In this document: piece by piece, positions 39,930 to 63,235 of the stretch | Layout: the number at the start of each line of letters is the position of its first letter | Numbering within the stretch: position 1 is the stretch's first letter | Assembly (NCBI GenBank): GCA_963677925.2 | Contig: CAXXYH010000003.1 | Span: 1,344,001 to 1,408,000 of the forward strand | DNA from: Spirochaetia bacterium | GTDB taxonomy: Bacteria; Spirochaetota; Spirochaetia; UBA9216 | DNA length: 64,000 nucleotides | Reading direction: 5' to 3' | Program-made: the position numbers and the translations under genes | Notes under the pieces: generated by a model | Databases searched by the model: none | Told to the model about the DNA's origin: nothing | What the model saw: the letters and a program-made list of their open reading frames with translations, nothing else

Positions 39930-41216
39930 CTAGTAAATCCCTATAGCAATCATCACCAGATACAGAGCTATATTAATAAACGGCCATCCAAGAAGAAAAT
40001 TAAAAATAGTTTTCCTGTGACCATCATCATCAACACTTGCAACTACAAGTCCACCGCTTCCGGAGAAAGGTGATACTGCTGTAGCCATAGAACCTACAGC
40101 AACAGCTGCAAAGGCTATTCCGGGATTGAAGCCTCCGGCGATTGCCAATGCGGGAACCAGGGCAAGGAAGGTTGTATTTACGACGAATCCGCTTACGAAC
40201 AGACTCATAATACCGGCAAAAAGAGCAAGCATCATTGGAATAATTCCGGTTGGCACACTGGTGGACAGCCAGTTTGATACCATCTCTATTGCGCCGGTCT
40301 TACTTACAATACCAATCAATGTACCCATTCCGCATAATGTGGTAAGGGCTGAAAGGGGAACTTTTTTGAAAGCTTCCTTTTCATCACCAACCTTGAATAA
40401 CGAAAGAAGAACTACTCCTATGAATGCAATCCAGATAAGGTACACACCTCTTGAGAACTTGACTGCAACAGGATTTCCATGTCCCAGCAGTCCTGCCAAA
40501 GGAGCAGCAACAAGAAGAACAACAAAACCGATTATTACAGCAAGGTTAATTCTCTGCTTTTTATTAAAAGGTTCAGGTTTACTAAGCTCTGGAGCCTTGA
40601 TCTTGTAACCTTTAAAGACTATGTAAGCAATTATAAAAATAATTGTATAAAGGAGTGTAATCTGGAAAAGGGCATGGTTTCCAAAATTATGGGCTTCAGC
40701 CTCGGAATGCCCGCCGAAATTCATTATGAGTTCTCTAAGAAAAATACCAGCTGTACTAATAGGGGTGAACCCGCCGGCACTGATTCCTGACACACATGAA
40801 ACAGCAGCGAGGATGTTATTCATACCTGTTACCTTTGCAATGGTAAGCCCGATAGGAATCATCATAACAGTAGCCCCGTCACCGGCCCCTATTCCAGCCA
40901 TAATAAATGAAAGGATGTACAGAACTATAGGAATGGCCCACGGAATATTCCTTACAGAATAAACAACTTTATCAGCAACTTTTTCGAGTGTTCCGTTCAG
41001 AACCGCAAAACTGTAAAAGAGTGTTACAGAAAACAGAAGAAGAAATAGTCTGGTCGGAAAAACACCGACTAATCCTCGGGGTGATTCACCAAGCACAAAG
41101 ACACCGATAATATAGGCAGCGGTTATAGCCCATAAACCTATATTGGTTTTTGTTTTTGTTCCAATCACAATAACGGCTACTATTGCAATCAAGCTGATAA
41201 TGATGATAGTCATCAA
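39930..41216 (-). CDS. IT-superfamily carboxylate carrier (SLC13/MatC-like), copy 1
   Basis: Highly hydrophobic; NIGLWAI, FAVLNGTLE, SPFSGSGGLVVAS. Confidence 0.75.
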   Translation of the reverse strand: MMTIIIISLIAIVAVIVIGTKTKTNIGLWAITAAYIIGVFVLGESPRGLVGVFPTRLFLLLFSVTLFYSFAVLNGTLEKVADKVVYSVRNIPWAIPIVLYILSFIMAGIGAGDGATVMMIPIGLTIAKVTGMNNILAAVSCVSGISAGGFTPISTAGIFLRELIMNFGGHSEAEAHNFGNHALFQITLLYTIIFIIAYIVFKGYKIKAPELSKPEPFNKKQRINLAVIIGFVVLLVAAPLAGLLGHGNPVAVKFSRGVYLIWIAFIGVVLLSLFKVGDEKEAFKKVPLSALTTLCGMGTLIGIVSKTGAIEMVSNWLSTSVPTGIIPMMLALFAGIMSLFVSGFVVNTTFLALVPALAIAGGFNPGIAFAAVAVGSMATAVSPFSGSGGLVVASVDDDGHRKTIFNFLLGWPFINIALYLVMIAIGIY

Positions 41217-41269
41217 TACCTCCTATTTATTTTTTTACCGGCTTCTCCTCCGGCATTAATTTCAATGAT

Positions 41270-43660
41270 TTATACCTCAGCAAAAGCTGTTCGCTCTATA
41301 ATTTCATTCTGCATGTCATTTCCAAGGGCTGTAAAATATGCACTATATCCGGCAACCCTTACTACAAGATCCTGATGCTCATCTGGAGCAGCCTGAGCTT
41401 CAATCAGATCATCCTTGTTTACAATATTGAACTGAATGTGCTTTCCGCCCTGTGAAAAATATGTTTTGATAAGCGAACCAAGCTTTAAAAGATCAGCCCG
41501 GCTTTTCAATGCCGACGGATGAAACTTCATATTCAACAGAGTTGCCTGATAAGTGTCCTGATTAATCTTCATTGCACTCTTAAGTACACCAGTCGGCCCG
41601 TTCTTATCCATACCGTGATTAGGCGACATACTTCCATCAGCAAGTATTTCACCTCGCTTACGTCCGTCCGGGGTGGCGCCGGTAAGGGCTCCGCCCGGCT
41701 GATGGGCTGTGATTGATATTGCAGTTGCTATACCCTTTCCCCCGAAAAAGGATCTTAAGGAAACGAGTTTCTTTTCAAATTTCTCATAAACTTCAGCTGC
41801 AAGTTCATCTACATAGTCAACTCCGTTACCGTACTTTGGAACTGCCAGAAAATCTTTCTGCATTTCTTCAAAACCGACCCAGTCTGAATCGAGAGCTTTG
41901 ACAAGCTCATCCATTGAGTATTTCTTGTCTTCATAGACGAGTTTTTTAACTGCAGCAAGTGAATCAGCAACATTGATACCTCCAACAGGACAGAGGGAGA
42001 GGCTGTTTTCAAACGGAATGGAACGCCTTAAAATATCCTTTCCCTCTTTGACTGCATCAAACATCAATGAAGATCTGAATGGATCAGGAAATAAGTTCTG
42101 CTCGGCTCTTAGTTCAATATTACATTTCTCAACCCCGAGCTCAATGAAGTAATCCATCTGTTTATAGAAGGCATTCTTAAATGCTTCAAAATCTGACATC
42201 TGTGTAACATCACCTGTTTTAATTCCGACAGTTTCATTGGTACCCTTATTAAATCCGTTGTGCATGAATATATCGAAGGCCAACGCAACAACGATAAATC
42301 CGAAAGTTGCAGTCCTTGATTTTCCCGGAATAGCACCATCGAGACAGCCGCATACAATATAATTACGGGCGTCTTCTATGGGCAAACCATGATACTGGTG
42401 AAAGAAATTTATGTAAGATTTATCTCCGATGAAGGCGGGCATTCCAATTCCGGCTTTTACAACTTCAAGGGCCTTTACCATCAGCTCATCAGGTGTTTTA
42501 TCATGTACTCTCAGAGTGAGTGTATGATGAGGTATTTTAGTTTCCATTGCGGCATCAAGCAGAAGATATGTAAGCTTGTTGCTGGCATCATTTCCATCTT
42601 TATCAACACCCCCGATAATAAAATTATGCCATTTAGCCATACCGGCATTTTTTTTCCTGTTCTGCTGACCTGAAACTCGATTTAGTTTGATATCCTTGAT
42701 ACGCAGAAGTTCTAAAAGTTCAATTACTTCCTCATCAGTAGTAATTCCTTTTTCAATATCATTTTTATAAAATGGATACATGTACTGATCAAAACGTCCG
42801 GCTGCAGCTGTAGTTGCAGGATTTATCATTAGAAAGGTGAACCAGAAGCACTGTATCGCTTCAAAAAAAGTTTCAGCAGGTTTGGCAGGTACTTTCGAAC
42901 AGGCTTTAGAAATTCGCATTAGTTCAAGTTTTCTTTCAGGGTCATTTTCTTCCATAGCCATCTCGGCTGCAAGTTCCGAATACCTCTGTGCAAGCCTTAT
43001 GAGGGCTTTATGAACAATAATAACAGAATTAAGAAAATCGACAGCTTCCTGATCAGGAGTTTCGCTAGCTTCCTGAATTTTCAAAGCTTCTTCGCACTCT
43101 GCAATTAAACTTAATGAACCTTCGTTCAGCATCTTTTCATAATCAACTCCAATCAGAAAGAACCCCGGGCCAAGGCCGAGACCGGACTGAGCATAACCAC
43201 CGCCGCTGCCTTCAGCCCCTTTCCAGGGAGGAAGCATTACTCCTGATTTCATGAAAGGCCATAGTTGCTCGCTTTTCATAAATTCAGCACCCATGGCTGA
43301 AATTAGTGTTTCACTGCTGAATTTTTCATTAATTTTCTGTATTTCATCTTCATCTGCAGGATTGATTATGTAATTTTCATTTTTTAATGATTCAATTTCA
43401 TCCGGCGTCCACGTACCATATTCATAATCAATCTCAAGGCCAAAGGGTTTACTTGCCCCTGCTCCCGCAAAAAGTTCATCATCTTCAATAAAAATAGTTA
43501 TTTTTTCAAGAATATTTTTTATAATAGCCGCGCGTCGAAGTACGCTGGGCTGCCCTTCAGTAGCTGAAAGAGTCTGTGTAGCTATTTTAAATTTCTCAAT
43601 ACAAAGAGGGTACTTTTCTACCTTCAGTGTATCTAAAAGCCGTTCAATTCTTGGTGTCAT
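41270..43660 (-). CDS. Glycyl radical enzyme of an unassigned subclass
   Basis: C-terminal LVVRVAGYSAYF Gly-radical motif, HIQFN, GRFDQYMYPFY, ATPDGR; Cys loop YIVCGCLDG; 796 aa. Confidence 0.92.
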   Translation of the reverse strand: MTPRIERLLDTLKVEKYPLCIEKFKIATQTLSATEGQPSVLRRAAIIKNILEKITIFIEDDELFAGAGASKPFGLEIDYEYGTWTPDEIESLKNENYIINPADEDEIQKINEKFSSETLISAMGAEFMKSEQLWPFMKSGVMLPPWKGAEGSGGGYAQSGLGLGPGFFLIGVDYEKMLNEGSLSLIAECEEALKIQEASETPDQEAVDFLNSVIIVHKALIRLAQRYSELAAEMAMEENDPERKLELMRISKACSKVPAKPAETFFEAIQCFWFTFLMINPATTAAAGRFDQYMYPFYKNDIEKGITTDEEVIELLELLRIKDIKLNRVSGQQNRKKNAGMAKWHNFIIGGVDKDGNDASNKLTYLLLDAAMETKIPHHTLTLRVHDKTPDELMVKALEVVKAGIGMPAFIGDKSYINFFHQYHGLPIEDARNYIVCGCLDGAIPGKSRTATFGFIVVALAFDIFMHNGFNKGTNETVGIKTGDVTQMSDFEAFKNAFYKQMDYFIELGVEKCNIELRAEQNLFPDPFRSSLMFDAVKEGKDILRRSIPFENSLSLCPVGGINVADSLAAVKKLVYEDKKYSMDELVKALDSDWVGFEEMQKDFLAVPKYGNGVDYVDELAAEVYEKFEKKLVSLRSFFGGKGIATAISITAHQPGGALTGATPDGRKRGEILADGSMSPNHGMDKNGPTGVLKSAMKINQDTYQATLLNMKFHPSALKSRADLLKLGSLIKTYFSQGGKHIQFNIVNKDDLIEAQAAPDEHQDLVVRVAGYSAYFTALGNDMQNEIIERTAFAEV

Positions 43661-43713: not shown

Positions 43714-43729
43714 TGCAATTTATGTGCCA
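43714..43729 (-). promoter_or_regulatory. Sigma54 -24/-12 promoter of the GRE operon
   Basis: TGGCACATAAATTGCA (consensus TGGCAC-N5-TTGC), 54 nt upstream of the ATG. Confidence 0.88.
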
Positions 43730-43888: not shown

Positions 43889-43913
43889 GTTACACTTTGT
43901 AACCTTTTGCAAC
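43889..43913. promoter_or_regulatory. Putative enhancer (UAS) for the GRE promoter
   Basis: GTTACACTTTGTAAC palindrome overlapping TGTAACCTTTTGCAAC; same motif at the same distance as 61709-61725. Confidence 0.55.
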
Positions 43914-43993: not shown

Positions 43994-44010
43994 TGTTTCA
44001 TATTGTTACA
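43994..44010. promoter_or_regulatory. Putative enhancer (UAS) for the solute-binding protein promoter
   Basis: TGTTTCATATTGTTACA, a variant of the shared motif. Confidence 0.5.
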
Positions 44011-44118: not shown

Positions 44119-44134
44119 TGGCATATATTTTGCA
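44119..44134 (+). promoter_or_regulatory. Sigma54 -24/-12 promoter of the solute-binding protein gene
   Basis: TGGCATATATTTTGCA, then GGAGG at 44146 and ATG at 44157. Confidence 0.8.
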
Positions 44135-44156: not shown

Positions 44157-45746
44157 ATGAAAAATTTTCATATCAAAAAATCAGTTCCAAAAGTATTAAT
44201 TGCAGCAGGTCTACTTGTTATGCTGCTGGCGGTATCACAGTTTTCATCCTGTGTCACCACGGACGCTTCAGCAAAACAGCTGAATGTAGCTTTGTCTACT
44301 CTGGCCGAAGAAAACTTTCTTCCCTGGAACGGAAGTACAGTCAGAAAGCCCTATCTGGATTGTATTTACGAATACATCGCGTATATCGATCCGGAAACAT
44401 CAGAACCGATCCCAGGCCTTGCTGAAAGCTGGAAATACTCTGATGACGGCCGGACTGTAACCCTGTTCATCAGAAAAGGAATTCAATTCCAGCAAGGCTG
44501 GGGAGAGTTTTCAGCTGAAGATGTTAAGTTTTCCATCGACAGAATGCTTGATCCTTCCGCTGTAGGCGGCCAGGCTTCAGCATTAAGAATGGCCGTTGCT
44601 TCGGTTGAAGCTGCGGAGAAGTATAAAGCCGTTATTACCCTGAAGGCTCCGGATCCTGTATTTGTTCAGGGTTATCTTGGAAATGGTGTAGCTATTCCCA
44701 TGGCATGTAAAAAATACATTGAAGAGATGGGAGAAGACTATGCGAATGATAACCCGGTAGGAACCGGAGCTTACACTCTGGGCGGTCATGTTGAAGGTAC
44801 ATCCGTTTCTGTACAAAAAGTCGAAGGAATGGACGAACACTGGCGTGTGAAACCGGAATTTGATACCATCAATTTTCTCGCTGTTTCAGACGAAGCTGAG
44901 CGCGTAGCTATGCTTAAAAATGGAGATATCGATCTTGCTCCGATAAACTGCAGCTCCATTACAGAAGTTGAACAGGCTGGATTGGAGACTGTTTCAATTT
45001 ATCATAATTATACTGCGGTTCTCCGTTTCGGCGGTACCAGCGGCATGTACCCTAACCCTGATGTTCCCTGGGCAAAAAAAGAGGTTCGACAGGCACTTAA
45101 TTATGCTGTAGACAGAGATAAGCTTATCAATGAAGTCCTTAAAGGAGAAGGAGATCCGGCAGGGATTGACCCCGATGCAAATGAGTTTAAAGATATAAAA
45201 GCTTACCCCTACGATCCTGCAAAGGCAAAAGCACTTCTGGCACAGGCCGGGTATCCTGATGGATTTGATGTAACCATCATGGCTGCGGCAACCATACCTG
45301 GTGCAGAACTCCCTATGCTTTCCGAAATGGTAGCAGCCCAATGGAATGAAATAGGTATTCGCGCAGAAGTGAAAGAAATCACAAATGCAGAAATTAGAGA
45401 AGCATGGACTACCGGAAAATATACCGATGTAATATGGACCCACAGAACTTACCCATGTTCAAACCTTGTTACTTCATTCCTTGTAATGAATTCCACCAGA
45501 AGCCCTCATGGTTCATTCTCCAATGAGGACACTGACAAAAGGATTATGAGTATTGCAATGGAAACTGATCCGGATCTTAGACTTTCCAAAATCCAGGAGA
45601 TGGCACAGTGGCTTAATGATGAGGGAGCAAGTATATATCTTGTTCATGGCAATGAGCCTTATGGAATAAGCAGCAAGGTAGGAAACTGGCCGGCTATCAA
45701 TCAGAATGTTACTAATTTTGATCAGATTTCTTTCGGTTCCAGATAA
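44157..45746 (+). CDS. ABC transporter substrate-binding lipoprotein, family 5 (DppA/NikA-like), orphan
   Basis: Lipobox FSSC, PGLAESW, PVGTGAY, VRQALNYAVDR, YDPAKAKALLAQAGYPDGF; start reassigned to 44157 after GGAGG. Confidence 0.9.
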   Translation: MKNFHIKKSVPKVLIAAGLLVMLLAVSQFSSCVTTDASAKQLNVALSTLAEENFLPWNGSTVRKPYLDCIYEYIAYIDPETSEPIPGLAESWKYSDDGRTVTLFIRKGIQFQQGWGEFSAEDVKFSIDRMLDPSAVGGQASALRMAVASVEAAEKYKAVITLKAPDPVFVQGYLGNGVAIPMACKKYIEEMGEDYANDNPVGTGAYTLGGHVEGTSVSVQKVEGMDEHWRVKPEFDTINFLAVSDEAERVAMLKNGDIDLAPINCSSITEVEQAGLETVSIYHNYTAVLRFGGTSGMYPNPDVPWAKKEVRQALNYAVDRDKLINEVLKGEGDPAGIDPDANEFKDIKAYPYDPAKAKALLAQAGYPDGFDVTIMAAATIPGAELPMLSEMVAAQWNEIGIRAEVKEITNAEIREAWTTGKYTDVIWTHRTYPCSNLVTSFLVMNSTRSPHGSFSNEDTDKRIMSIAMETDPDLRLSKIQEMAQWLNDEGASIYLVHGNEPYGISSKVGNWPAINQNVTNFDQISFGSR

Positions 45747-45832: not shown

Positions 45833-47647
45833 TCAGACAGGAACTTTAGATAATAAATTTGAGAATAGACCGGAGTTCAAAGCATGATTAATAGTCTGCA
45901 ATGCTTTTATGTGCTCATCCGGATTTTGTTTTGGAGATATGATGAGAAAAACCAGGTCAACATGTTTCTCGGGTTTTATATGCCACAAGACAGGCTTTTC
46001 CAGTTTACAGCCAATGGCGACAGCATCATCGACAAATTCGGATCTGCAGTGAGGCATTGCAATCCCTTCTATCAAAACCGTAGAACCCAGCTGTTCCCTT
46101 TCGATAACAGCATTCATTGTGTAGTTTACATCTTCAACATAACCATGTTCAAAAAGTGATGTTATGAGTTGGTTTATAATTTGAGTTTTAGACATTGAAT
46201 TCTGAACTTCCATTCTCTGCATAGGAACCGGCATCAACCGATCCAAATTAAGAGGCGGTTGAGGAAGGGTTTGTTTTTTAACAGCTTCTGCTTCACCGGC
46301 GGTCCACTGCTTCCATCTTATCAAAGTCCGTTCAGACAAAAAAGCGCCTACAAGTTCAAACATAACCAATGCCGGGACTATGGTATTGAAAACCATAGCA
46401 CCTTCTTCACCGCCCAGTACACTCGCTACAAGAATTGTTTCAACTGCTGCCATACCCGCCTGAGGGAGCATCAGCTTGGGAATACTTGCCGTAATTTTTT
46501 GGTCCTGTCCTGTCAGTTTGCAGCCGATCCAGTTTCCTCCCAGCTTTGAAACTGTCCTCAGTCCGAAGTATCCAAGAACCAGAAATAATGTATCAAGCGA
46601 GAAGGTTTCTATCTGAACACTTGCCCCTATAATACCGAAGAACAGCAGATTAAAAACCGGCATAACATCTTTCAGTTTAAGTGAATCAAACAGCGCATTT
46701 GTATGAAAATTTGCTACCAGGATTCCGGCAAGCACAGCAACAATGAGGAAAGGCAGATCAAAATGCATTGCTACTGAAATGACAATCGCAATAGCACCTA
46801 TGATTATCAAAAGTATTTCAACAGATGGAGTCGGATGATCTGAAAGTATTGATGACAGCAGAGAATTATTATCGTCACCATTCAGATCTTCATGCTCATG
46901 CTTATAATTTCTGATTGTGAAGCGCAGTATGATAAAAAGAACAACGCCAAGAAGCACTGCAAGCCCCATCTCGAGGGATACATCTGCAAAGATATGCACA
47001 GGCGAAATGTGTTCCCCTGCTTTAATACCTGTTGCAACACCAAGCATGATAGAAAACACTATAACTTCTAAAACATCATCAAGAACAACAATATTTGCAA
47101 GTATGTTTTTAAGCGGACCTTCTATCTGGAAACGCGACATTAATATAAAGGTAAGCGCAGGTGCTGTTGCAATACCGATTGAACCTATCAGCATGGCAAC
47201 CACCCATGAAGCTCTGAATATAAAATGAAACCCAAGTGAAATAACCATCCAAGTCAGGACCGCCTGGATCAGGCAAATGATAGTTGCTTTTACGCCTACC
47301 TGTTTTAGACGATTCCAGTGAAGCTCCTCTCCAAGAGAAAAAGCCACTATTCCAAGAAAAAGGAAAACAAAAAAATGTGACCCTTCCATTATGAGTGCGT
47401 AATCATGAAAACGGTTCTCGAAGAAATTAACGGCAGGACCCATTATGGTTAATGATGCTATTCCCGGATGACCGGACAGCCATCTACTGACTAGTAAAAG
47501 AAAATGAGGTCCCACCAGTACACCGCCTATAATCTGACCGATAACTTCACCTACATGAATTTTACGAGCTATTCTTCCGCCGAAATAAGCAGCCAGAACA
47601 AGCAGGCCCAATTCAAAAATCTGTAATTCAATATGTGAAATGCTGAT
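45833..47647 (-). CDS. Cation/H+ antiporter fused to a C-terminal PTS EIIA(Ntr/Fru)-like domain
   Basis: ATAPA, VVLDDV, PQAGMA antiporter motifs; EREQLGSTVLIEGIAMPH EIIA motif; start uncertain (ATC 47647 after a strong SD, or TTG 47611). Confidence 0.85.
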   Translation of the reverse strand: MSISHIELQIFELGLLVLAAYFGGRIARKIHVGEVIGQIIGGVLVGPHFLLLVSRWLSGHPGIASLTIMGPAVNFFENRFHDYALIMEGSHFFVFLFLGIVAFSLGEELHWNRLKQVGVKATIICLIQAVLTWMVISLGFHFIFRASWVVAMLIGSIGIATAPALTFILMSRFQIEGPLKNILANIVVLDDVLEVIVFSIMLGVATGIKAGEHISPVHIFADVSLEMGLAVLLGVVLFIILRFTIRNYKHEHEDLNGDDNNSLLSSILSDHPTPSVEILLIIIGAIAIVISVAMHFDLPFLIVAVLAGILVANFHTNALFDSLKLKDVMPVFNLLFFGIIGASVQIETFSLDTLFLVLGYFGLRTVSKLGGNWIGCKLTGQDQKITASIPKLMLPQAGMAAVETILVASVLGGEEGAMVFNTIVPALVMFELVGAFLSERTLIRWKQWTAGEAEAVKKQTLPQPPLNLDRLMPVPMQRMEVQNSMSKTQIINQLITSLFEHGYVEDVNYTMNAVIEREQLGSTVLIEGIAMPHCRSEFVDDAVAIGCKLEKPVLWHIKPEKHVDLVFLIISPKQNPDEHIKALQTINHALNSGLFSNLLSKVPV

Positions 47648-47657: not shown

Positions 47658-48659
47658 TTATATTATATCTGTATAGCCTACATGATTGCCTTCTATCGTT
47701 CGATTAAGCAATCTTTTATTAACGAGATAATACAGATGAGATAAAGTTTCACCTACAGCAAACCATTTCTGGTGAGGCGGAAAACTTTCCCAGTCAAGAC
47801 CGCGGGCAGACCATGACAGCTTGCCGGCGATTGAATATGCATCGATACCAGGATTAGAATTGATGATGCCAATAATTTCTTCTATCCTTTTATCATGGTG
47901 CTCGATCAGTTCATCAATTCTGCTGTAAATATCTTTCCGCGGAGTACTGCGGTGTGCGGGAAAGGCTGTCTGGACAGGAAGATTTTTTATACTGTGTAAA
48001 CTGTTCAGGTATTCGGCAAGAGGGTCTTTTCCATCAGCCCATATCCCTATATTTGGAGATATGTCAAAGAGGACATGATCTCCTGTAAAAAGCATTTGTG
48101 TTTCTGCAATATATAACACCATATGTCCCGGACTATGTCCCGGTGTATGAATACATTGACATTCTACTCCGCCAAGATCTATAACGTCGCCGTGTGAAAC
48201 ATTAGTAACAGGAAAAATTTTACCGGGAAGATAAACCCTGTTATGGTTTTCCCGATCCTGCCGGCCGATACTGTCTTCGGGATACCCTTCTTTAATATAA
48301 AGATTATTCAGCCAGCGTATTGTTTCACCTTTAACGGCCCTGAGATAATATTCATAATCATTTTCATTCATATAAATCGTACAATTTTTTTCAGCAAACA
48401 AGGGTGCCTGCCCGAAATGATCAGAATGACCGTGAGTAACAAAAAGGGCGGTTTTAGCCATATCCAGATTTATTTCTTCAATTCCGGACCACAGCTCTTC
48501 CCTGCACTCCTCTGCATCAAATCCTGTATCAATAATCAGGTTTTGTTCTTCACCGCAAATAACATAGGAATTTAAATTCCTTAAAGGATTGTTTTTTAGT
48601 TTTACATCAATAAGCCAGATTTCAGGCGAGTCTGATAATTTTTTAACATTATTTTCCAT
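47658..48659 (-). CDS. Metallo-beta-lactamase fold hydrolase
   Basis: THGHSDH, TPGHSPGH, FTGDH, PAH. Confidence 0.9.
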   Translation of the reverse strand: MENNVKKLSDSPEIWLIDVKLKNNPLRNLNSYVICGEEQNLIIDTGFDAEECREELWSGIEEINLDMAKTALFVTHGHSDHFGQAPLFAEKNCTIYMNENDYEYYLRAVKGETIRWLNNLYIKEGYPEDSIGRQDRENHNRVYLPGKIFPVTNVSHGDVIDLGGVECQCIHTPGHSPGHMVLYIAETQMLFTGDHVLFDISPNIGIWADGKDPLAEYLNSLHSIKNLPVQTAFPAHRSTPRKDIYSRIDELIEHHDKRIEEIIGIINSNPGIDAYSIAGKLSWSARGLDWESFPPHQKWFAVGETLSHLYYLVNKRLLNRTIEGNHVGYTDII

Positions 48660-51374: not shown

Positions 51375-51375
51375 C

Positions 51376-54706: not shown

Positions 54707-55870
54707 CTAATTAATCAGACTGAAAATTCCTGCGGCACCCATACCTCCACCTATGCACATAGAGATGAGAGCATACTTGCCGTTATTGTCTTTAAGATAA
54801 TCCAGAGCTTTTTCGGTCAGAATGGTTCCCGTAGCACCCATAGGGTGACCAAGTGCCATGGCTCCGCCGTAAGGATTCACCTTTTCAGGATTCATCCCGA
54901 GTTCTCTAGTACAGGCTAATGCCTGAGAAGCAAAAGCCTCGTTAAGCTCGATTACATCCATCTGCTCCAGACTGAGACCAGTTTTTTTAAGAAGTTTAGG
55001 AATTGCATAAATCGGCCCCATTCCCATCAAGCTGGGGTCACAGCCTGCAACGGCAAAACCTTCAAACTTTGCTATTGGTTTCATTCCAAGCTCTTCCGCT
55101 TTCTTTCTTTCCATCACAACAGCATAGGCAGCAGCATCAGTCATCTGTGATGATGTAGCGGCAGTCACAAGGCCGTTTTCCCTGAATGGTGGATCCATTG
55201 ATGCCATCTTTTCCAGAGAGGTTCTGAGATTTCCTTCAGCGTCAGCAAGTATTCCATCGTCTTCAGAAATCCAGACACCCTGATCATTAGACATAGGAAT
55301 AATACTTGGAGAAAGTTTACCGGCCATCCGGGCTACAGAAGCCCTTCTGTGTGACTCCAAAGCCATCTCTTCCATTTCCGCTCTGGTAATTTTGTATTTA
55401 TCTGCTACTCTTTCTGCGGTTTCTCCCATAGACATTATTGCTGAGGGATAATTCTCTTTTATCCATGGATTAAGATACGGTTCCTGAAAAGGATCAAAGC
55501 AGTCAGTCATAAACTCAGCGCCGCCTGCAACAGCTATGTCATATTCACCGGCAATGATTGCATTTGAAGCAGCAGCTATAGTCTGCAGGCCTGAAGAGCA
55601 GAATCTGTTTACTGTCTGTGCAGGGATTTCTTCCGGCAGCTCTGCCCTATTGACAATAAGCCGGCTTACATTCATATCCATTTCCTTTAAAGGGAATGCA
55701 CAGCCTGTAAGAACATCACCGATTAATTCCGGACTCAACTGTGGAACTTTTTCCAGCACTCCTTTCAAAGTCATTGCTGCATAATTAATTGGATGGGTCT
55801 GACTGAAGCCGCCCTTCCTTGCCCTGCAGCAGGCACTTCTTCCGTATGCTACAATTACAGCTTCTCTCAT
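54707..55870 (-). CDS. Thiolase (acetyl-CoA C-acyltransferase)
   Basis: [26 protein letters not shown]. Confidence 0.94.
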
Positions 55871-55885: not shown

Positions 55886-56737
55886 CTATTTGTAGTCGTA
55901 CCAGCCGCGTCCTGACTTTCTGCCGAAACGCCCGTCTTTAACCATTTCAGTGACAACTTCAGGACAGCTCCAGTCGGTGACCGGAAGACCTTCAAGGGAA
56001 TCACAAACATGAGTGAATGTATCAAGACCCGAAAGATCCATCATTTCGAATGGTCCGAGAGGATGGTTCAAACCGAGTTTCATTGCTGTGTCTATATCTT
56101 CAGCTGTTGCTATTCCGTCCGTATAACAGCGGAGAGCTTCTAGCACGAATGCAAAAAGACAGCGGTTAACAATAAAACCGGGTTCATCTTTTTTACATTC
56201 CACGGCTGTTTTCTTCATACCGGCGGCAGTCTCCTTAACCGTTTGAATTGTTTCATCACTGGTCGCTGTGCACCTGATCAACTCAACAAGTTTCATTACA
56301 GCCACTGGAAAGAAGAAATGCATTCCTACACAGCGTTCCTTGTGGTCACATCCTGACATTATTTCTTCAACCGACATCGAGGATGTGTTGGTGCAGAATA
56401 TGGCATCAGGCCTGCAGACTTCAGATAAGCCGTTGAAGATTTCCTGTTTCAGTTCAAGAACTTCGGGGGCTGCTTCAATAATGAGGTCACATTTACTCAT
56501 GTCAGATATTTCAGTAGTGCAGCTTATTCGTTCTAAAGTTTTTTCTGCTTCATCAGCATCCTGTTTACCGGCCGCTACTCTTTTCTCCATGGCTGCTTTC
56601 ATTTTCTGTACAGCATTACTGCAGAATTCAATTTTTATATCTCGTAAAACTACGTCGTAACCGGCCGAGGCTGCTATCTGAGCAATACCTGCGCCCATTT
56701 GTCCCGCTCCGATTACACCAATTGTTTTCACTATCAT
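55886..56737 (-). CDS. 3-hydroxyacyl-CoA dehydrogenase (Hbd-like)
   Basis: GAGQMGAGIA, TNTSS, GMHFF, PGFIVNR, GRKSGRGWY. Confidence 0.93.
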   Translation of the reverse strand: MIVKTIGVIGAGQMGAGIAQIAASAGYDVVLRDIKIEFCSNAVQKMKAAMEKRVAAGKQDADEAEKTLERISCTTEISDMSKCDLIIEAAPEVLELKQEIFNGLSEVCRPDAIFCTNTSSMSVEEIMSGCDHKERCVGMHFFFPVAVMKLVELIRCTATSDETIQTVKETAAGMKKTAVECKKDEPGFIVNRCLFAFVLEALRCYTDGIATAEDIDTAMKLGLNHPLGPFEMMDLSGLDTFTHVCDSLEGLPVTDWSCPEVVTEMVKDGRFGRKSGRGWYDYK

Positions 56738-56749: not shown

Positions 56750-57664
56750 TTAATTATGCTGAAAGATCGGTTTACGTTTTTCGAGCATAGCCCTCATACC
56801 CTCTTTCTGGTCATGGGTTTTAAAAAGCTCTGTAAACTCTACCGTCTCTCTTTCTTTACCGTAGGTCATGCCCTCTTTCACTGAAAAGTTGATTGTATTC
56901 TTTGCCGCGGCAACAGCTTTACCCGGCATCTGAATCAGTCTTGCAGCAACAGCTGAGGCCTTCTGACAAATAGCATCAGCCTCTGCAGCGGCAGCAGCAG
57001 ACTCACATTCACTGTAAAGAAGTTTCATCTTTTCTAAATTGCCGTTATTTTCACGTTTTGCAGATTCGAGTGAAGCCTTGGCTTCCGCAGACGCCTTATC
57101 CAGCTCGGAACTTCCTGGCTCGAACCAGTTTAATAACCCCATATCAAAAGCAGCTTTACCGCTGATTTTTTCATTAAGTAGAATTAATTGCTTAGCAATA
57201 GAAGGTCCCAGCAATGAAGCCGCACGAACGCAGCCGTTGGCTCCCGGGATTACACCAAGTCCGACTTCCGGAAACGACAATAAAGTTCTCGGACCGCCAA
57301 CCCTGAAATCACATGCCAAAGCAAGCTCAAAACCTCCTCCGAATGCAAAACCGCAAATTGCAGCTATAGTCGGAATCTGAAGATTTTCAATTTCATCATT
57401 TATTTTTATTGCAAGCTGACATACTTCGTGAGCCTTTACAGGATCTGCATCAACCATATCGGTGATATCAGCTCCGGCAGCAAAGGCTCTTGTTCCTGCT
57501 CCGCTTATGACAACAGCTCTTATTGATGAATCCTTTTTTATTTCCTGAATTGTGGAATAAAGAAGTTGATTCAATTCAAGATTCAGTGCATTGAGCTGAT
57601 GTGGTCGATTCAATAATATTTCTGCAATACCATCTGCTACTTCAAGCAGGACTAATGGCTCCAT
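56750..57664 (-). CDS. Enoyl-CoA hydratase (crotonase) with an internal insertion
   Basis: LNRP..LNAL, AFAAGADI, GGGFELALACD, PEVGLGVIPG. Confidence 0.9.
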   Translation of the reverse strand: MEPLVLLEVADGIAEILLNRPHQLNALNLELNQLLYSTIQEIKKDSSIRAVVISGAGTRAFAAGADITDMVDADPVKAHEVCQLAIKINDEIENLQIPTIAAICGFAFGGGFELALACDFRVGGPRTLLSFPEVGLGVIPGANGCVRAASLLGPSIAKQLILLNEKISGKAAFDMGLLNWFEPGSSELDKASAEAKASLESAKRENNGNLEKMKLLYSECESAAAAAEADAICQKASAVAARLIQMPGKAVAAAKNTINFSVKEGMTYGKERETVEFTELFKTHDQKEGMRAMLEKRKPIFQHN

Positions 57665-57760: not shown

Positions 57761-59776
57761 CTAAGCTTTCATAACTGCTTCACGGGCATCAGCTATTGCA
57801 TCCATAGCTTTACGCGGCTTGCTGGAGTCGCCGATTTGAACAAGAACATTTGGAATCATAGTTTTTAATTTTTCTGCGAGATCATTTTCCGGCCTGGAAC
57901 CTATTGCAAGAACAACTGTGTCAGCAGGAATATTCTTGGTTGTTCCATCTTCTGTATTTTCTACTGTCACAGAATCTTTCTGTATCGAAACTACTTTTGA
58001 GTTTGTATGTCTCCATACTTTGAAGCGGCTTAGATTGCTCATAAATATCCACTTTGTTGAAGCACCGATATCTGCACCTATTTTCTTCTGCATTTCTACT
58101 ATCGCTACTTTTTTGCTTCCCTGAGTAATAAGTTCATATAATCTTTCAGGTGTTTCGGCTTTATAAAGCATAAGGAATTTCAAAACCTCAGCAGAGATAG
58201 TACCCTCTTCAGCAAGCATCAAGGCAGTTTCAACACCTACAGCACCGCCTCCGACAACAACTACATTCTTACCGGTGTTAACTTTTCCCCTTAAGACATC
58301 CCAGGCTGATACTACATTTGCACCTTCTTCGGTAGGAAACTTCGGAATTATTGGTGCGGCACCTGTGGCAATAACTACACGTTTAAAATATCCGCTTACG
58401 ACAGCTGCGTTAATTTCTTCTGCAATAGCTTCTTTGTTAAACTGAAATGAAACCCCGGCATCAAGACATTCTTCATACTGATTAACCGGAAGTTCGGCAA
58501 AGGCTTCTCTTCCGGGTGCTGCAGCTACCATATCCATCTGTCCGCCGAAAGTGCTTTTTCGTTCCCAGACTGTCACAGTAGATCCAGCCTTGGCAGCCCG
58601 CAGAGCGTATTCCATACCTGCGACTCCGGCTCCGATAACAAGTGTAGGTTCCGGAGTGTGATTATTTTCATCCATCTCTCTGCCTGCATCACTATTGGCA
58701 AGACAGCACAGAGGAGCGTTGGCAAAAATATTATCCATACAGCCCTGATTACATCCAACACATTGTCTGACAAGTTCAGGATGACCGACAGCCATCTTAT
58801 TTACCATTTCCGGGTCAGCAATAAATGCACGGCAGAATCCGATAAAGTCAGCATCGCCACGATCAAGGATTGCTGATGCGGTTTCAAAATTCATTCTGTT
58901 ACATGCATACACCGGCACTGAGACCTGCTCTTTAACCCTTTTTGCAAGGTAAGCGTATGCGCCGTTTGGTACATCCATAGTTACCTGCGGGACTGGAGTT
59001 TCATGCCATCCGCCGGTTATATTAAGAGCATCAACACCAAGCTTCTCAAGTTCTTTAGCAACACGGATACAATCATCATTATCATTTCCATTGCGGACAT
59101 AGTCGTTTCCGGCAAGTCTTACAGCAATAGGATAATCAGGTCCGACAGCATTTCTGACAGCCTGGAAAATTTCTCTAAGGAAAGTCATTCTTCCATCAAG
59201 GAATCCGCCGTATTTATCAGTTCTGAAGTTTGTTGCGGATGAAAGGAACTGTGCAATCAAATACCCGGCACTGCCGACAAGCTCGACACCATCAAAGCCG
59301 ACATCTTTTGCTCTCTTGGCTGCATCCGCAAAGTTCTTGATTATTTCTTCAATTTCTTCAATTTCAAGAGCTCTTGTTTTAGAGCGGCTGAATCCACAGA
59401 AAAACTCAGAAGGTGCTACAGGAGTCTCGCCGTTGTAAACGACCGGGTTTGAATAAGCACCTGCATGCCAGAGCTGTGGAAAAACTTTTCCTCCAGCTTC
59501 ATGAATAGCATCCACCAGGTCTTTCATTCCCGGCATGTTTGAATCACTCGAGAGCTGCATTACTCCGGCAGTTGTAACTCTTAAGGGATCTACACCTACC
59601 GCTCCAACAACCATAAGACCGACACCGCCGGCTGCTCTTTTTTTATAAAATTCAATAAGTCTTGGGGTGACATTACCTTCTTTCGTACAGTATGAAAGGT
59701 TAGCAGGGGTCATCACAAAACGGTTTTTCAATTCAAGATTCCCGATTTTACCGGGCTGTAATAAAGATTCGTACAT
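57761..59776 (-). CDS. FMN/FAD/[4Fe-4S] oxidoreductase of the 2,4-dienoyl-CoA reductase / enoate reductase (OYE) family
   Basis: LKNRFVM, QLWHAG, GSAGYLIAQFLS, NFRTDKYGG, CVGCNQGC...C, two GxGxxG motifs. Confidence 0.9.
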   Translation of the reverse strand: MYESLLQPGKIGNLELKNRFVMTPANLSYCTKEGNVTPRLIEFYKKRAAGGVGLMVVGAVGVDPLRVTTAGVMQLSSDSNMPGMKDLVDAIHEAGGKVFPQLWHAGAYSNPVVYNGETPVAPSEFFCGFSRSKTRALEIEEIEEIIKNFADAAKRAKDVGFDGVELVGSAGYLIAQFLSSATNFRTDKYGGFLDGRMTFLREIFQAVRNAVGPDYPIAVRLAGNDYVRNGNDNDDCIRVAKELEKLGVDALNITGGWHETPVPQVTMDVPNGAYAYLAKRVKEQVSVPVYACNRMNFETASAILDRGDADFIGFCRAFIADPEMVNKMAVGHPELVRQCVGCNQGCMDNIFANAPLCCLANSDAGREMDENNHTPEPTLVIGAGVAGMEYALRAAKAGSTVTVWERKSTFGGQMDMVAAAPGREAFAELPVNQYEECLDAGVSFQFNKEAIAEEINAAVVSGYFKRVVIATGAAPIIPKFPTEEGANVVSAWDVLRGKVNTGKNVVVVGGGAVGVETALMLAEEGTISAEVLKFLMLYKAETPERLYELITQGSKKVAIVEMQKKIGADIGASTKWIFMSNLSRFKVWRHTNSKVVSIQKDSVTVENTEDGTTKNIPADTVVLAIGSRPENDLAEKLKTMIPNVLVQIGDSSKPRKAMDAIADAREAVMKA

Positions 59777-59829: not shown

Positions 59830-61407
59830 TTAAAGTGTAAAATCAAAATATTTTGAATCCATCACCTTTACGTCATCAGCTACTTGTGGTGCGAAATCCA
59901 TATTGTCTAAAATATCTTTCTGCAGATCTATTCCAGGTGCAACTTCAGTAAGCAGTAAGCCTTCTGATGTGAGCTTAAAAACACAGCGTTCGGTAATATA
60001 AATTACATCCTGCTCTTTTTCATTTGCAAACTCTCCTGAGAAAGAGATCTGTTCTACATTGCTTACGAATTTTTTAGATGTACCTTCTTTTACAATATTC
60101 AGTTTGCCGTTTTCGAATTTCAGTTCCATATCTTTTCCGTCCATGAAACTTGTAAGAAATACAACCTTATTATTTCCCTGTGTAAGATTAATAAATCCGC
60201 CGACGCCGATAATGATTTTACCGACCTTACTTACTCCAACATCTCCTGAAGGTCCAATCTGGGCCGCACCTACATATACACCGTCAAGGTTTCCCCCGTC
60301 ATAGAAATCAAACATTGAGGGCATTGTGGTAATCATCTGAGCATTTATAGTAGCACCGAAACCGGGAACAGGAAGAGGCACTCCGCCTATCAACCCAACT
60401 TCATTGGTCATGACAATGTTATCCCATTCGCCGCTCTCGGTTGCTATAGTTGAAATAAGTCCGGGTATACCAACACCAAGATTAATAACATCTCCGGTTT
60501 TTATTTCATCGTAAGCTCTTCTTGCTATGATGTACTGATCATATCGTTTTTTATTTCCGGGGATTATCGATACCATTTTCTCAATGTAAGGAACAACTTT
60601 AGCTTCAGGAAGAACACCGTCTCCGCTTAGTGCAGGCTGATTTTTTTCAAACACACACTGCATCTGGTTTGGATTGATTACCAGATAATCCACAACCTTT
60701 CCCGGAAGCTGTACTGTCTTTGCAGAGAATCTCCTTTCAGATCTTCTCTCTACCTGTACTACTACAACACCGCCATTAGCCTTGGTAGCCATAGCGATTT
60801 CTTTTGCATCAACAAATGCGGCTTCATCTGTAAAAGAAATGTTCCCTCTTTCATCAGCTGCAGTTCCAGCGATAAAAGCGATATCAATTTTCGGAGTCGT
60901 GTATTGAAGATATTCCTCACCGTCTACTTCAATAAGCTTTGAAATATCTGCTACAGATTCTGCTTTTTCATTAAGCCTCGCACCATTGTTACGCGGGTCA
61001 ACTGAAGTCTTAAGTCCAACCTGACTTATGATTGCCGGTTTTTTCCCTGCGGCAGCTCTATACAGATGTGAGATAACTCCCTGCGGCAGATTAAATCCTG
61101 CAACTTTATTTTCACCAACCATTCGTGCAAGCGAAGGCAGTGAACTGAACTGTCCCATATATACTGTATCTACAAGTCCCTCGGCATCCTGAAACATTGC
61201 ATCAGTGTACGCACCGGGACGGGCTATCCCTAAAGAAGTAGCTCCCCACAAAGTAAGCCCCTTCGGTGATTTAGTTTCCCTGTAACGATTACCTAGCGAG
61301 GTTGCAAGCAGATCCGGATTACAGACTGTGCAGACGCCATTAATTGAGATAACATCATTGTCGCTTACAAGATTTGCCGCCTCATCGGCTGAAATTATTT
61401 TTGCCAT
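59830..61407 (-). CDS. Family I acyl-CoA:acetate CoA-transferase, fused (YdiF/Pct-like)
   Basis: NLPQG, VGLKTSVDPR, ADERGN, INLGVGIP, NEVG catalytic Glu, FDFYDGG, GGFINL, YITERCVF. Confidence 0.92.
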   Translation of the reverse strand: MAKIISADEAANLVSDNDVISINGVCTVCNPDLLATSLGNRYRETKSPKGLTLWGATSLGIARPGAYTDAMFQDAEGLVDTVYMGQFSSLPSLARMVGENKVAGFNLPQGVISHLYRAAAGKKPAIISQVGLKTSVDPRNNGARLNEKAESVADISKLIEVDGEEYLQYTTPKIDIAFIAGTAADERGNISFTDEAAFVDAKEIAMATKANGGVVVVQVERRSERRFSAKTVQLPGKVVDYLVINPNQMQCVFEKNQPALSGDGVLPEAKVVPYIEKMVSIIPGNKKRYDQYIIARRAYDEIKTGDVINLGVGIPGLISTIATESGEWDNIVMTNEVGLIGGVPLPVPGFGATINAQMITTMPSMFDFYDGGNLDGVYVGAAQIGPSGDVGVSKVGKIIIGVGGFINLTQGNNKVVFLTSFMDGKDMELKFENGKLNIVKEGTSKKFVSNVEQISFSGEFANEKEQDVIYITERCVFKLTSEGLLLTEVAPGIDLQKDILDNMDFAPQVADDVKVMDSKYFDFTL

Positions 61408-61523: not shown

Positions 61524-61539
61524 TGCAATTTATATGCCA
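61524..61539 (-). promoter_or_regulatory. Sigma54 -24/-12 promoter of the CoA-dependent operon
   Basis: TGGCATATAAATTGCA, 15/16 identical to the GRE promoter. Confidence 0.88.
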
Positions 61540-61699: not shown

Positions 61700-61725
61700 T
61701 TAACATTTTGAAACACTTTGCAACA
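61700..61725. promoter_or_regulatory. Putative enhancer (UAS) for the CoA operon promoter
   Basis: TTAACATTTTGAAACACTTTGCAACA, with 10-bp periodic TG(A/C)AACA units about 170 bp from the -24 box. Confidence 0.55.
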
Positions 61726-61730: not shown

Positions 61731-61769
61731 AAAAAAAAGCTTATTGTAAATATTCATTACAATAAGCTT
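61731..61769 (-). terminator. Intrinsic terminator of the enhancer-binding protein gene
   Basis: AAGCTTATTGTAA / TTACAATAAGCTT stem plus an 8-nt U-tract on the minus strand. Confidence 0.7.
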
Positions 61770-61795
61770 CTTGTTTAGCTTTTTTTAGCTTTTTA

Positions 61796-63235
61796 TCACT
61801 TATGAATTAATAAATCTTCAGAATCTTCAGTTTTTAAAAGTTTCCTGTATAACGTAGTTCGTGATATCCCAAGTTTTTCAGCAGCAGCCTTCCTGTTTCC
61901 GTTAGTTTCAACCAATGCTTCAAGTATTTTTTCCCGCTCAATGTGTTTGTATTCATCTATAACTGCACGTTCATCAAAAGAATTATCCGGACTTTCCCGT
62001 CTTCTCACATCCGCCATAATCATATCTTCTCCTATGAGAAGATTTTCAAGCAGTACAGGAGTAATTAAACTTCTTTCCGTAAGAACAACAATTTTTTCAA
62101 TTATATTTCTCAATTCCCTGACATTTCCGGGCCAGGAATAATTCTCGAAATATTTATAAGTATCCTTTGATAACTGAACATATTTATTATACAAGTTATT
62201 TAATATAGCAATGTAATGTTTTGCCAGCGGAATTATGTCTTCTTTCCTCTCACGGAGGGGTGGAATATCAATAAATATTACACCGATTCGGTATAGTAAA
62301 TCTTCCCTGAAAAGATTTTCCCTTACCATCTTTTTTAAATCTTTATTTGTGGCTGCAATAAAACGTACGTTCAGCTCAATTGTTTTAACACCGCCTACTC
62401 TTGTAAATTTCCTGCTTTCAAGGACTCTCAGCAATTTAACCTGAAGATCCATAGGAATATCACCAATCTCATCAAGAAAAACAGTCCCTCCTTCGGCAGA
62501 TTCAAGTAGACCTATATGTCCTGAATTTGATGCACTGGTAAAAGCTCCTTTCTCATAACCAAATAATTCAGACTCCATTAAAGAAGGTGACATTTGAGGA
62601 ATACAGACAGGAACAAAAGGCTTCTCTTTACGGGGGCTGTTTTCGTGAAGAAGTTTGGCAATAATCTCTTTCCCCACTCCCGACTCGCCGGTTATTACAA
62701 CGCTGGCATCAGAAGCAGCTATTTTCATTGTATTCTTAACAATGCGCTTCATTAGTTCATCTTCAAAAACCGGTGTATTGTGTTTTCTAAGAAGATAATC
62801 ATAAAGATATTCATTTGATTTCTGTAAATAGGTCATATTATGCCGAAGTTTATCAACATCTTCCATCAACTCATCAGCAACCATGCAATAAGTAACGACT
62901 GTCTTTACTTTATTATTTTCATCCTTAACCACTTTACTATGCGAGTATACCCATTGGTCGTCTATAGCATGAAAGAGTTCCTTTGAATCTTCTCCAATCC
63001 GGAACGCCTTTTCACTGGCTGAAGAATTGTAATACTTTTCTTTAATTAAATCAGTAGAGCCTTTTCCTTCGACATCTGAGGGATTCAGTCTTAAGTGTTT
63101 AAGAAACTGTTCACTGACACAAAGGAATTTACCATCAGCTCCCCGAACGGTTATAGGTATCATTTCAGATAATTTATTGAGAATCAATTTGTTTATTTCG
63201 TTAATTTCACTTTCAGTCATCCTAAAATAATTCAT
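61796..63235 (-). CDS. Sigma54-dependent enhancer-binding protein (PAS-like + AAA+ + Fis HTH)
   Basis: GESGVGKE, ESELFGYEKGAFTSA, FLDEIGD, FREDLLYR, WPGNVREL, AAEKLGISRTTLYRKL. Confidence 0.95.
   Translation of the reverse strand: MNYFRMTESEINEINKLILNKLSEMIPITVRGADGKFLCVSEQFLKHLRLNPSDVEGKGSTDLIKEKYYNSSASEKAFRIGEDSKELFHAIDDQWVYSHSKVVKDENNKVKTVVTYCMVADELMEDVDKLRHNMTYLQKSNEYLYDYLLRKHNTPVFEDELMKRIVKNTMKIAASDASVVITGESGVGKEIIAKLLHENSPRKEKPFVPVCIPQMSPSLMESELFGYEKGAFTSASNSGHIGLLESAEGGTVFLDEIGDIPMDLQVKLLRVLESRKFTRVGGVKTIELNVRFIAATNKDLKKMVRENLFREDLLYRIGVIFIDIPPLRERKEDIIPLAKHYIAILNNLYNKYVQLSKDTYKYFENYSWPGNVRELRNIIEKIVVLTERSLITPVLLENLLIGEDMIMADVRRRESPDNSFDERAVIDEYKHIEREKILEALVETNGNRKAAAEKLGISRTTLYRKLLKTEDSEDLLIHK

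Follow-up and report, generated by a model that had tools for sequence, protein, structure and literature searches.

A predicted sigma-54 regulon in a Spirochaetia bacterium that may link a Cys-x-Asp glycyl radical enzyme to a putative radical dehydratase/beta-oxidation route

We analyzed a 64,000-nucleotide stretch of DNA from a Spirochaetia bacterium (GenBank assembly GCA_963677925.2, contig CAXXYH010000003.1, positions 1,344,001 to 1,408,000), here called the window and numbered from 1 to 64,000 throughout. We predict that the window carries a sigma-54 regulon in which three promoters and one activator probably join a glycyl radical enzyme (GRE) with a radical dehydratase/beta-oxidation route for an organic acid; the organism is an anaerobe, and such a route is probably undescribed. 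The regulon comprises three units: (i) the GRE with a MatC-type carrier (carrier 1), (ii) an orphan family-5 binding lipoprotein, and (iii) a 12-gene operon. The binding-lipoprotein gene converges on the 3' end of the operon and is divergent from the GRE-carrier 1 unit. The genome measures 5.04 Mb, and its contigs are cited here as G000:C3 and G000:C4; L and G followed by a number denote sequence loci and genomes used for comparison, and P0002 is a metagenomic protein. The gene calls of an initial annotation of this DNA were checked with Pfam and NCBIfam (17 genes scanned) and were all borne out.

The prediction of a regulon begins with its promoters. A scan of the window with the consensus TGGCACNNNNNTTGCW, allowing up to two mismatches, gave 24 matches compared to 33.1 expected, which is no enrichment. 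With at most one mismatch, only three sites were found: TGGCACATAAATTGCA upstream of the GRE unit (43714-43729, minus strand, no mismatch), TGGCATATATTTTGCA upstream of the binding-protein gene (44119-44134, plus strand, one mismatch), and TGGCATATAAATTGCA upstream of the 12-gene operon (61524-61539, minus strand, one mismatch). All three are intergenic and aimed at the next gene on the correct strand, 54, 23 and 117 nt from the ATG codons of the GRE, the binding protein and the family I CoA-transferase, respectively. In a scan of both strands of the genome, the strict form TGGCA[CT]N5TTGC[AT] occurred 22 times, and three of these sites fall within a 17.8-kb span of this window. The three -24/-12 promoters reported in the initial annotation therefore stand. 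The start first assigned to the binding protein (TTG at 44118) overlaps the promoter, and the most likely start is the ATG at 44157. The genome contains rpoN (Sigma54_DBD, 191.7 bits, G000:C4:471744-472220).

Evidence that the three promoters respond to the same regulator comes from a box that lies upstream of each. Alignment of the promoter regions of the GRE and the operon revealed a conserved block about 185 nt 5' of the -24 element (GTTGCAAAAGGTTACAAAGTGTAAC and GTTGCAAAGTGTTTCAAAATGTTAAAC), which we condensed to the box GTTNCA-N4-GTTNCA. This putative activator site is found as GTTGCAAAAGGTTACA before the GRE unit (43898-43913, minus strand), as GTTTCATATTGTTACA before the binding-protein gene (43995-44010, plus strand) and as GTTGCAAAGTGTTTCA before the operon (61709-61724, minus strand), lying 184, 124 and 185 nt 5' of the respective -24 boxes and each time on the promoter strand. 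Because the box was derived from the other two regions, its presence at the binding-protein promoter is an independent test. The box has 14 occurrences in the genome, compared to about 11.6 expected from composition, and 3 of the 14 precede the three promoters. When the 22 strict sigma-54 sites were searched for a box within 300 nt, precisely the three regulon promoters had one. Exact 9-mers common to the promoter regions were limited to the promoter boxes and A+T-rich words. Co-regulation by one activator, as first proposed, is thus a well-supported prediction from sequence: the three promoters would form one regulon. A fourth strict site, 94 kb away (G000:C3:1294584, L111:2585), has a 16-mer identical to the binding-protein promoter and precedes another family-5 binding lipoprotein (547 aa) beside an Amidohydro_3 gene. 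It was rejected as a member of the regulon because the GTTNCA box is absent.

The candidate activator is an enhancer-binding protein of 479 aa encoded at 61796-63235 on the minus strand, with a PAS-like N-terminus, an AAA+ domain (PF00158, 2.4e-62; Walker A GESGVGK present) and HTH_8. It is the only Sigma54_activat protein of the window, in agreement with the single enhancer-binding protein reported initially; tblastn found no second in the window and about 30 paralogues in the genome. Its 160 N-terminal residues had no Pfam match, and their description as PAS-like is suggested by an Atlas features score of 0.97, which we treat as a lead only, and by the Pfam PAS match of a homologue in Geosporobacter. 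The gene has its own sigma-70-like promoter (63279-63307, minus strand; TTAACA-17-TATAAT with TG, 11/12), and a terminator-like hairpin of 16 pairs with a T-run (61734-61772, minus strand) lies 3' of it, before the operon promoter. A second activator of the genome, near position 1012732 of G000:C4, shares the contact-loop variant GAFTSA discussed below, and a strict sigma-54 box lies nearby at C4:1013648.

The GRE (796 aa, 41270-43660, minus strand; Pfam PFL-like 1.4e-153, Gly_radical 4.5e-31) has the glycyl motif RVAGY (Gly771) and one catalytic cysteine, Cys439, in the loop G438-C439-L-D441. C439, D441 and G771 are invariant in all 24 of the 24 clade members compared, which are 55-87% identical. 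The protein scores below every NCBIfam equivalog cut-off, and its best solved match is B12-independent glycerol dehydratase (1R8W, 472 bits). At the position of Asp441, five of the aligned solved enzymes have Glu (glycerol dehydratase, HplG, 8iof, HypD and diol dehydratase) and 7e7l has Leu. According to sections 5.6-5.7 of a 2026 review (PMC13450708), all characterized GRE eliminases and isomerases keep Cys-x-Glu, a motif that is Cys-Leu-Asp in the window enzyme, and the initial view of this GRE as atypical is upheld in this respect. That review assigns no reaction to a Cys-x-Asp member, and a search of its text for CXD, aspartate and dicarboxyl gave no match. Cys-x-Asp GREs nevertheless make up a large branch: 1452 relatives were found in a first search, and the best 120 of the 1452 are all at least 55% identical and are named from Clostridia, Desulfobacula, Sedimentisphaerales and Acidobacteria.

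The genome itself has seven GRE genes, five of them of the Cys-x-Asp type, the other six genes being at C3:710229, C3:1625521, C3:1774647, C4:213553, C4:1339541 and C4:1359309 (a PGA_cap gene lies directly upstream of the last). Two GRE activases score above the curated TIGR02494 cut-off, 675 kb and 386 kb from the window. The one 675 kb away heads a MerR-activase-GRE-carrier locus in which the GRE is 74% identical to that of the window and the carrier (G000:C3:712727-713956) is 84% identical to carrier 1. Most likely, the window GRE depends on an activase encoded elsewhere, namely the one at G000:C3:709289-710227 beside the 74% paralogue. Phylogenetically, P0002 (86% identical) is the partner of the window GRE; within a well-supported clade of seven rows, the two form the sister group of the paralogue and an almost identical copy of the paralogue found in G001, a genome of the same genus.

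Carrier 1, encoded with the GRE (39930-41216, minus strand), is a MatC_N/CitMHS anion carrier of 428 aa (PF07158 7.9e-30, PF03600 3.2e-26), and a terminator-like hairpin (39868-39887, minus strand; 8 pairs, 6 of them G-C, with a T-run) closes the unit. The binding lipoprotein (529 aa, 44157-45746, plus strand; SBP_bac_5 4.6e-68) has a signal peptide ending in FSSC, and its closest solved proteins are YliB/GsiB, DppA and AgaA. No permease or ATPase genes adjoin it.

The 12-gene operon is encoded on the minus strand with intergenic gaps of 1-99 nt. The initial annotation had listed 11 genes; those listed are confirmed, and the count rises to 12 with the gene at 45833-47611. The first gene encodes a fused family I CoA-transferase of the YdiF/FadX type (59830-61407; Pfam and NCBIfam; YdiF, PDB 2ahu, 361.7 bits). 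It is followed by a FadH/BaiCD-type Fe-S flavoenzyme (57761-59776), in which an OYE domain, the four-cysteine Fe-S motif CVGCNQGCMDNIFANAPLCC (C-x2-C-x3-C-x11-C, at residue 339) and an FAD/NAD(P) domain (Pyr_redox_2) are combined in one chain, the domain set of the FadH family; residues 2-637 match E. coli FadH, a 2,4-dienoyl-CoA reductase (PDB 1ps9), with 331 bits, and the match to 2-naphthoyl-CoA reductase reaches 320 bits. The core of beta-oxidation is complete, comprising an enoyl-CoA hydratase of the crotonase fold (304 aa, 56750-57664) and a 3-hydroxyacyl-CoA dehydrogenase (55886-56737), both from Pfam and NCBIfam, and a thiolase (54707-55870; Pfam, and TIGR01930 with 375.9 bits, above cut-off). 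Next come a family III CoA-transferase (53396-54637; Pfam 4e-102), whose closest solved relative is succinate-hydroxymethylglutarate CoA-transferase (SUGCT; 9br6, 209.8 bits), and the three genes of the putative dehydratase. The last three genes encode carrier 2 (48759-50039; 426 aa, MatC_N/CitMHS by Pfam), an MBL-fold hydrolase (47658-48659; Pfam and NCBIfam) and a Na+/H+-exchanger-type membrane domain fused to PTS EIIA-2 (45833-47611; PF00999 1.3e-24, PF00359 5e-24). The closest solved relative of the hydrolase is an uncharacterized MBL protein, and glyoxalase II and the PqsE thioesterases are distant.

The putative dehydratase consists of an ATP-dependent activator of the BcrAD_BadFG type (268 aa, 52560-53366) and two HGD-D subunits, one HadC-like (beta, 51376-52548; Pfam HGD-D 1.2e-62) and one HadB-like (alpha, 50106-51374; Pfam HGD-D 3.7e-56; 422 aa in the database gene call). 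The activator scores well above the TIGR00241 cut-off for acyl-CoA dehydratase activases (261.1 compared to 125.4 bits), and with PF06050 found twice the composition is that of a 2-hydroxyacyl-CoA dehydratase. The best NCBIfam scores are HadB for the alpha subunit (142.6 bits, with BcrB at 115) and HadC for the beta subunit (158 bits, with BcrC at 152 and double-cubane at 146), and HadB (PDB 3o3m, 113.7 bits) is the solved match of the alpha subunit. These scores lie far below the equivalog cut-offs of 750 and 700 bits, placing the pair outside HadB and HadC proper. The subfamily is rare and nearly all of it is unnamed: among 5.8 billion proteins, 40 other clusters were found at E <= 3e-106, the best 61% identical. 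It was not found in 399 sampled Clostridia genomes at E <= 1e-80, nor at the family level in five genomes carrying the GRE clade (best match 215 bits). Among 41 genomes of relatives, the alpha subunit was matched in 4, and the three non-self matches were just 22-23% identical. A region of the same genome with thiolase, 3-hydroxyacyl-CoA dehydrogenase, crotonase and OYE genes (G000:C3:741-770 kb) was considered as a paralogous regulon and rejected, being of the butyrate/lysine-fermentation type with Ptb/Buk, a beta-keto acid cleavage enzyme and no HGD-D gene.

The link of this GRE clade with HGD-D, CoA-transferase and beta-oxidation genes recurs in other phyla, as the initial annotation had suggested looking for. 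We surveyed 51 loci of the clade with a reach of about 10 kb; the loci are just 3.7-22.4 kb long, and the partner counts are therefore floors. HGD-D genes were found in 9 of the 51 loci, a family III transferase in 11, MatC-type carriers in 16, an activase in 28 and a PGA_cap protein in 9. YdiF-type transferases and family-5 binding proteins occurred in 4 loci each and a crotonase in 1; Hbd, thiolase, FadH-type and MBL genes occurred in none (0/51). Co-occurrence of the clade with the CoA cluster thus held in part. A set of GRE, HGD-D alpha and beta subunits, family III transferase, PGA_cap protein and transporter recurs in records labeled Clostridia, Bacillota and Acidobacteriota. Within Clostridia, a close GRE was found in 2 of 400 genomes, with two candidates per genome scored.

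Carrier 2 ties the GRE clade to the dehydratase module, because its relatives adjoin genes of both. Relatives that are 46-51% identical directly follow the GRE in L015, L017 and L018 (51% in L018), and a 54% relative lies inside the closest dehydratase loci, L064-L066. In a survey of 23 metagenome loci of the dehydratase subfamily, a second HGD-D subunit was present in 19, the activator in 12, a family III transferase in 9, the 54% relative of carrier 2 in the closest 3, and SBP_bac_5 by Pfam in 3 (L067, L069 and L076). In contig L067, genes of this dehydratase subfamily and an activator occur together with a GRE, two family III transferases and a family-5 binding protein, and L071 has an oligopeptide-type ABC ATPase gene. 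In L072 (1319-5205), rpoN and a PrpR_N-type activator adjoin the operon of the dehydratase subfamily, and a sigma-54 box lies 49 nt before its first gene.

The fullest recurrence was found in Geosporobacter ferrireducens IRF9, into whose complete genome (NZ_CP017269.1) we extended locus L015 (L015, L116 and L117; about 1.972-2.008 Mb). This cluster of about 35 kb contains three GREs with the loop GCLD and an activase, MatC carriers of both types, and in addition CitMHS and DASS carriers. Also encoded there are HGD-D alpha and beta subunits, a family III transferase and a PGA_cap protein, along with a 3-hydroxyacyl-CoA dehydrogenase fused to a hydratase, a thiolase, and an acyl-CoA dehydrogenase with EtfBA. 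There are five strict sigma-54 boxes in the cluster, and the first gene after one of them encodes a YdiF-type transferase 42% identical to that of the window. A PAS-AAA-HTH activator encoded there is 35% identical to the window activator over residues 27-466. Upstream of the boxes are GTTGCA-N4-WGCAAC palindromes, whose half-site is that of the window box; two of the three exact palindromes in the 5.8 Mb genome lie in the cluster, as do 3 of about 20 with at most one mismatch. The two systems therefore share Cys-x-Asp GREs, both types of MatC carrier, an HGD-D pair, both CoA-transferase types, the hydratase/dehydrogenase/thiolase set, a homologous activator and the GTTGCA half-site. They differ in that the Geosporobacter HGD-D subfamily is only 23-25% identical to that of the window, acyl-CoA dehydrogenase/Etf replaces the FadH-type enzyme and PGA_cap the MBL hydrolase, the cluster includes its own GRE activase but showed no dehydratase activator, and the repeat that forms the box is inverted, not direct as in the window. 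We regard this cluster as the strongest independent support for the proposal that these families act together under a homologous activator, and recurrence of this kind makes a single pathway plausible. A PcrA/UvrD helicase gene adjoining the cluster (L117:4731-8000) has an intein-splicing domain.

Several observations weigh against a single regulon and pathway. On the regulatory side, the upstream box was found post hoc, from two of the three regions; the sigma-54 contact loop of the activator (residues about 228-233) is GAFTSA, not GAFTGA (5/6); and the predicted transcript start of the binding protein is only about 11 nt 5' of its ATG. On the enzymatic side, the HGD-D subunits score nearly as high on benzoyl-CoA-reductase and double-cubane models, and the cluster (17 genes scanned), in which two CoA-transferases are present, has no 2-hydroxyacid dehydrogenase, so that the acid may arrive hydroxylated or be hydroxylated by another step. 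No GRE activase is encoded within the window or regulon, and for this reason the initial description of the regulon as self-contained fails. Where HGD-D genes lie beside Cys-x-Asp GREs elsewhere, they belong to another subfamily, 22-27% identical to that of the window. Conversely, a GRE was found in only 1 of the 23 dehydratase-subfamily loci (L067), and this GRE is of the Cys-x-Glu type and 28% identical. Finally, the GRE's own subclade usually has the arrangement MerR-activase-GRE-carrier with no CoA genes (the paralogue locus, L009 and G001), and G225 holds only a GRE and an activase within about 19 kb on either side.

These last observations point to an alternative, in which the units are co-regulated and serve two separate routes. 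The GRE and carrier 1 would then be self-sufficient for uptake, conversion and product export, having been copied from the activase-linked paralogue and put under the activator, while the 12-gene operon would break down another, related acid. In L009/G001, L039, the paralogue locus and G225, the GRE-carrier(-activase) module occurs by itself; the GRE unit and the operon are each provided with a carrier, carriers 1 and 2 being only about 25% identical; and the tree places the window GRE and P0002 as a diverged sister of the paralogue clade. The carrier 2 type, in contrast, adjoins both Cys-x-Asp GREs and this dehydratase subfamily, and Geosporobacter likewise groups GRE, dehydratase and beta-oxidation genes behind sigma-54 boxes. 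With this evidence on both sides, we consider two separate routes somewhat unlikely.

A second alternative concerns the dehydratase, which could be an ATP-driven reductase similar in type to benzoyl-CoA reductase or the double-cubane enzymes, with an acyl-CoA that is unsaturated or cyclic as its substrate, acting with the FadH/naphthoyl-CoA-reductase-like enzyme in a reductive ring or diene pathway. It arises because the reductase scores follow the dehydratase scores closely, notably for the beta-like subunit, for which BcrC and double-cubane are within 6 and 12 bits of HadC, respectively; for the alpha subunit MbdO reaches 99.8 bits compared to 113.7 for HadB, the OYE protein aligns well with 2-naphthoyl-CoA reductase, and benzylsuccinate CoA-transferase (150.6 bits) is a further match of the family III transferase. 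The top scores nevertheless go to dehydratase subunits, the single ATPase gene is activator-sized and above the dehydratase-activase cut-off, and the carriers are of the aliphatic di-/tricarboxylate type, and we judge a reductase to be quite unlikely. That the three promoters are real but answer to different activators, the units being neighbors rather than a regulon, is very unlikely: the roughly 30 activator paralogues and the identical, box-less fourth promoter 94 kb away would allow it, but the oriented box is present at just these three of 22 sites, the activator gene adjoins the units, and Geosporobacter offers a parallel arrangement in which the activator is homologous and the half-site similar.

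For the single regulon and pathway that we favor, the following scheme can be proposed. An imported aliphatic acid would bind the PAS domain, and the activator would then open the three promoters; the most likely candidate is a hydroxy- or unsaturated (di)carboxylate in the C4-C7 range. Both carriers and the binding protein would import the acid or exchange it for product, and the SUGCT-like family III and YdiF-like family I CoA-transferases would form and recycle the thioester. The ATP-primed Fe-S dehydratase, composed of the activator and the two HGD-D subunits, would strip the alpha-hydroxyl by ketyl-radical chemistry. Hydration, oxidation and thiolysis of the resulting enoyl-CoA would yield acetyl-CoA; alternatively, reduction of the enoyl-CoA by the FadH-type enzyme could provide an electron sink. 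This enzyme would handle the enoyl-CoA redox step, a role that may fall to acyl-CoA dehydrogenase/Etf in Geosporobacter. The MBL-fold protein may hydrolyze a thioester. The GRE would act on the free acid, or a close relative of it, through C-X cleavage or decarboxylation, either ahead of the CoA route or alongside it. The gene content is best matched by a substrate that is aliphatic and a hydroxy- or unsaturated (di)carboxylate. An aryl acid appears least likely, since the family III transferase has SUGCT as its closest relative and both carriers are of the MatC/CitMHS type, features that favor an aliphatic dicarboxylate. With its carriers, two CoA-transferases and beta-oxidation set, the regulon narrows the search for a substrate to imported aliphatic acids.

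We speculate further that the Cys-x-Asp GREs represent a new reaction class, namely radical decarboxylases or lyases of aliphatic dicarboxylates, each working with a MatC-type exchanger and supplying or draining a radical-dehydratase route here and in Geosporobacter; in this specific form the proposal is unlikely, and we offer it tentatively. By way of example only, the dehydratase and family III transferase might make an unsaturated dicarboxylate such as glutaconate, which the GRE would decarboxylate allylically in place of the biotin-dependent glutaconyl-CoA decarboxylase; an alternative example is a GRE that produces the 2-hydroxy acid consumed by the dehydratase. The conserved GRE-carrier pairs would also fit a decarboxylase paired with a substrate/product exchanger. 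If this proposal is true, the window encodes an undescribed sigma-54-controlled anaerobic pathway with two different radical enzymes in series, and the possible gain is a new GRE reaction class together with a new anaerobic carbon route. The PAS sensor and the binding protein provide handles for ligand screening, and G. ferrireducens, a named strain with a complete genome, offers a second organism for bench tests.

The same-genus genome G001 aligns with the window at 88% identity as far as about position 25616, with only paralogous matches beyond. Neither the window GRE nor the dehydratase is present in G001, nor is any of the sequence between about 25.7 kb and the window end. Because of this absence, the regulon is placed in a species-specific stretch of at least 38 kb, as judged from the sequence alignment. 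Close to the regulon on its upstream side, a DUF362 protein, an ArsP_1-type permease and a Cyclophilin_like2 protein form a module that is present twice (27134-29621 and 36834-39696; also 32336-32815), amid esterase, carboxylesterase, aldo-keto reductase and cupin genes. Within the operon, an A+T-rich perfect hairpin of 13 pairs lies between the dehydratase gene and carrier 2 (50061-50094, strand not assigned). Its tail on the operon strand is not T-rich, and it may be a processing or attenuation site dividing the operon into nine and three genes. The exchanger-EIIA-2 gene is separated from the preceding gene by a gap of 46 nt, and fusion of an exchanger to PTS EIIA-2 is an unusual pairing for a sigma-54 operon.

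The initial annotation did not recognize this combination of genes from any characterized pathway, and none with it was found in the literature searched, including the 2026 review (PMC13450708). Its parts can be compared with known systems. Among regulators, the closest are the PrdR-type sigma-54 activators of Clostridia, the best NCBIfam match of the window activator (351.8 bits, residues 2-466), which likewise are one-component activators beside a catabolic operon. The window protein differs from these in falling below the 795-bit cut-off, in lacking the first 120 or so residues of the model, and in having targets unrelated to proline reductase.

Among GREs, the window enzyme resembles the eliminases and isomerases (glycerol dehydratase 1R8W, propanediol dehydratase, CutC, HypD, IslA, HplG and YbiW/PflD) in fold, length, the RVAGY motif and the single catalytic cysteine in a G-C-x-acid loop. 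By our reading of the alignment, the glycerol dehydratase positions His164 and Ser282 are not conserved in the window GRE. The enzyme also stands apart from this group by its gene neighbors, which are carboxylate carriers and not microcompartment or aldehyde-handling genes, and by Asp441, where characterized members have Glu according to the sections cited above (PMC13450708) and our alignments.

The operon invites comparison with the (R)-2-hydroxyacyl-CoA dehydratase pathways of amino-acid-fermenting anaerobes. These pathways include HadI/HadBC with HadA, HgdC/HgdAB with GctAB, and lactoyl-CoA dehydratase with propionate CoA-transferase; the acrylate route pairs a YdiF-type family I transferase with an enoyl-CoA reductase. 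Shared features are an activator ATPase above the TIGR00241 cut-off, two HGD-D subunits, an adjacent CoA-transferase and HadB as the best solved match. The window differs in that its subunit pair scores far below the HadB/HadC cut-offs and is not accompanied by a 2-hydroxyacid dehydrogenase, and in that its family III transferase is SUGCT-like, pointing to dicarboxylates. Under its predicted sigma-54 control, it further combines these genes with a full hydratase/dehydrogenase/thiolase set, a GRE and an enzyme of the FadH type.

A further system for comparison is the anaerobic toluene pathway, with benzylsuccinate synthase, BbsEF, beta-oxidation and benzoyl-CoA reductase. To our knowledge, no other characterized route combines a GRE with a family III CoA-transferase, a set of beta-oxidation enzymes and an enzyme of the HGD-D/BcrAD type. 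In contrast to that pathway, the window has a GRE that is without small subunits and more closely related to the eliminases than to the X-succinate synthases, a single ATPase gene where the toluene pathway has two, and carboxylate carriers that suggest a polar substrate rather than a hydrocarbon.

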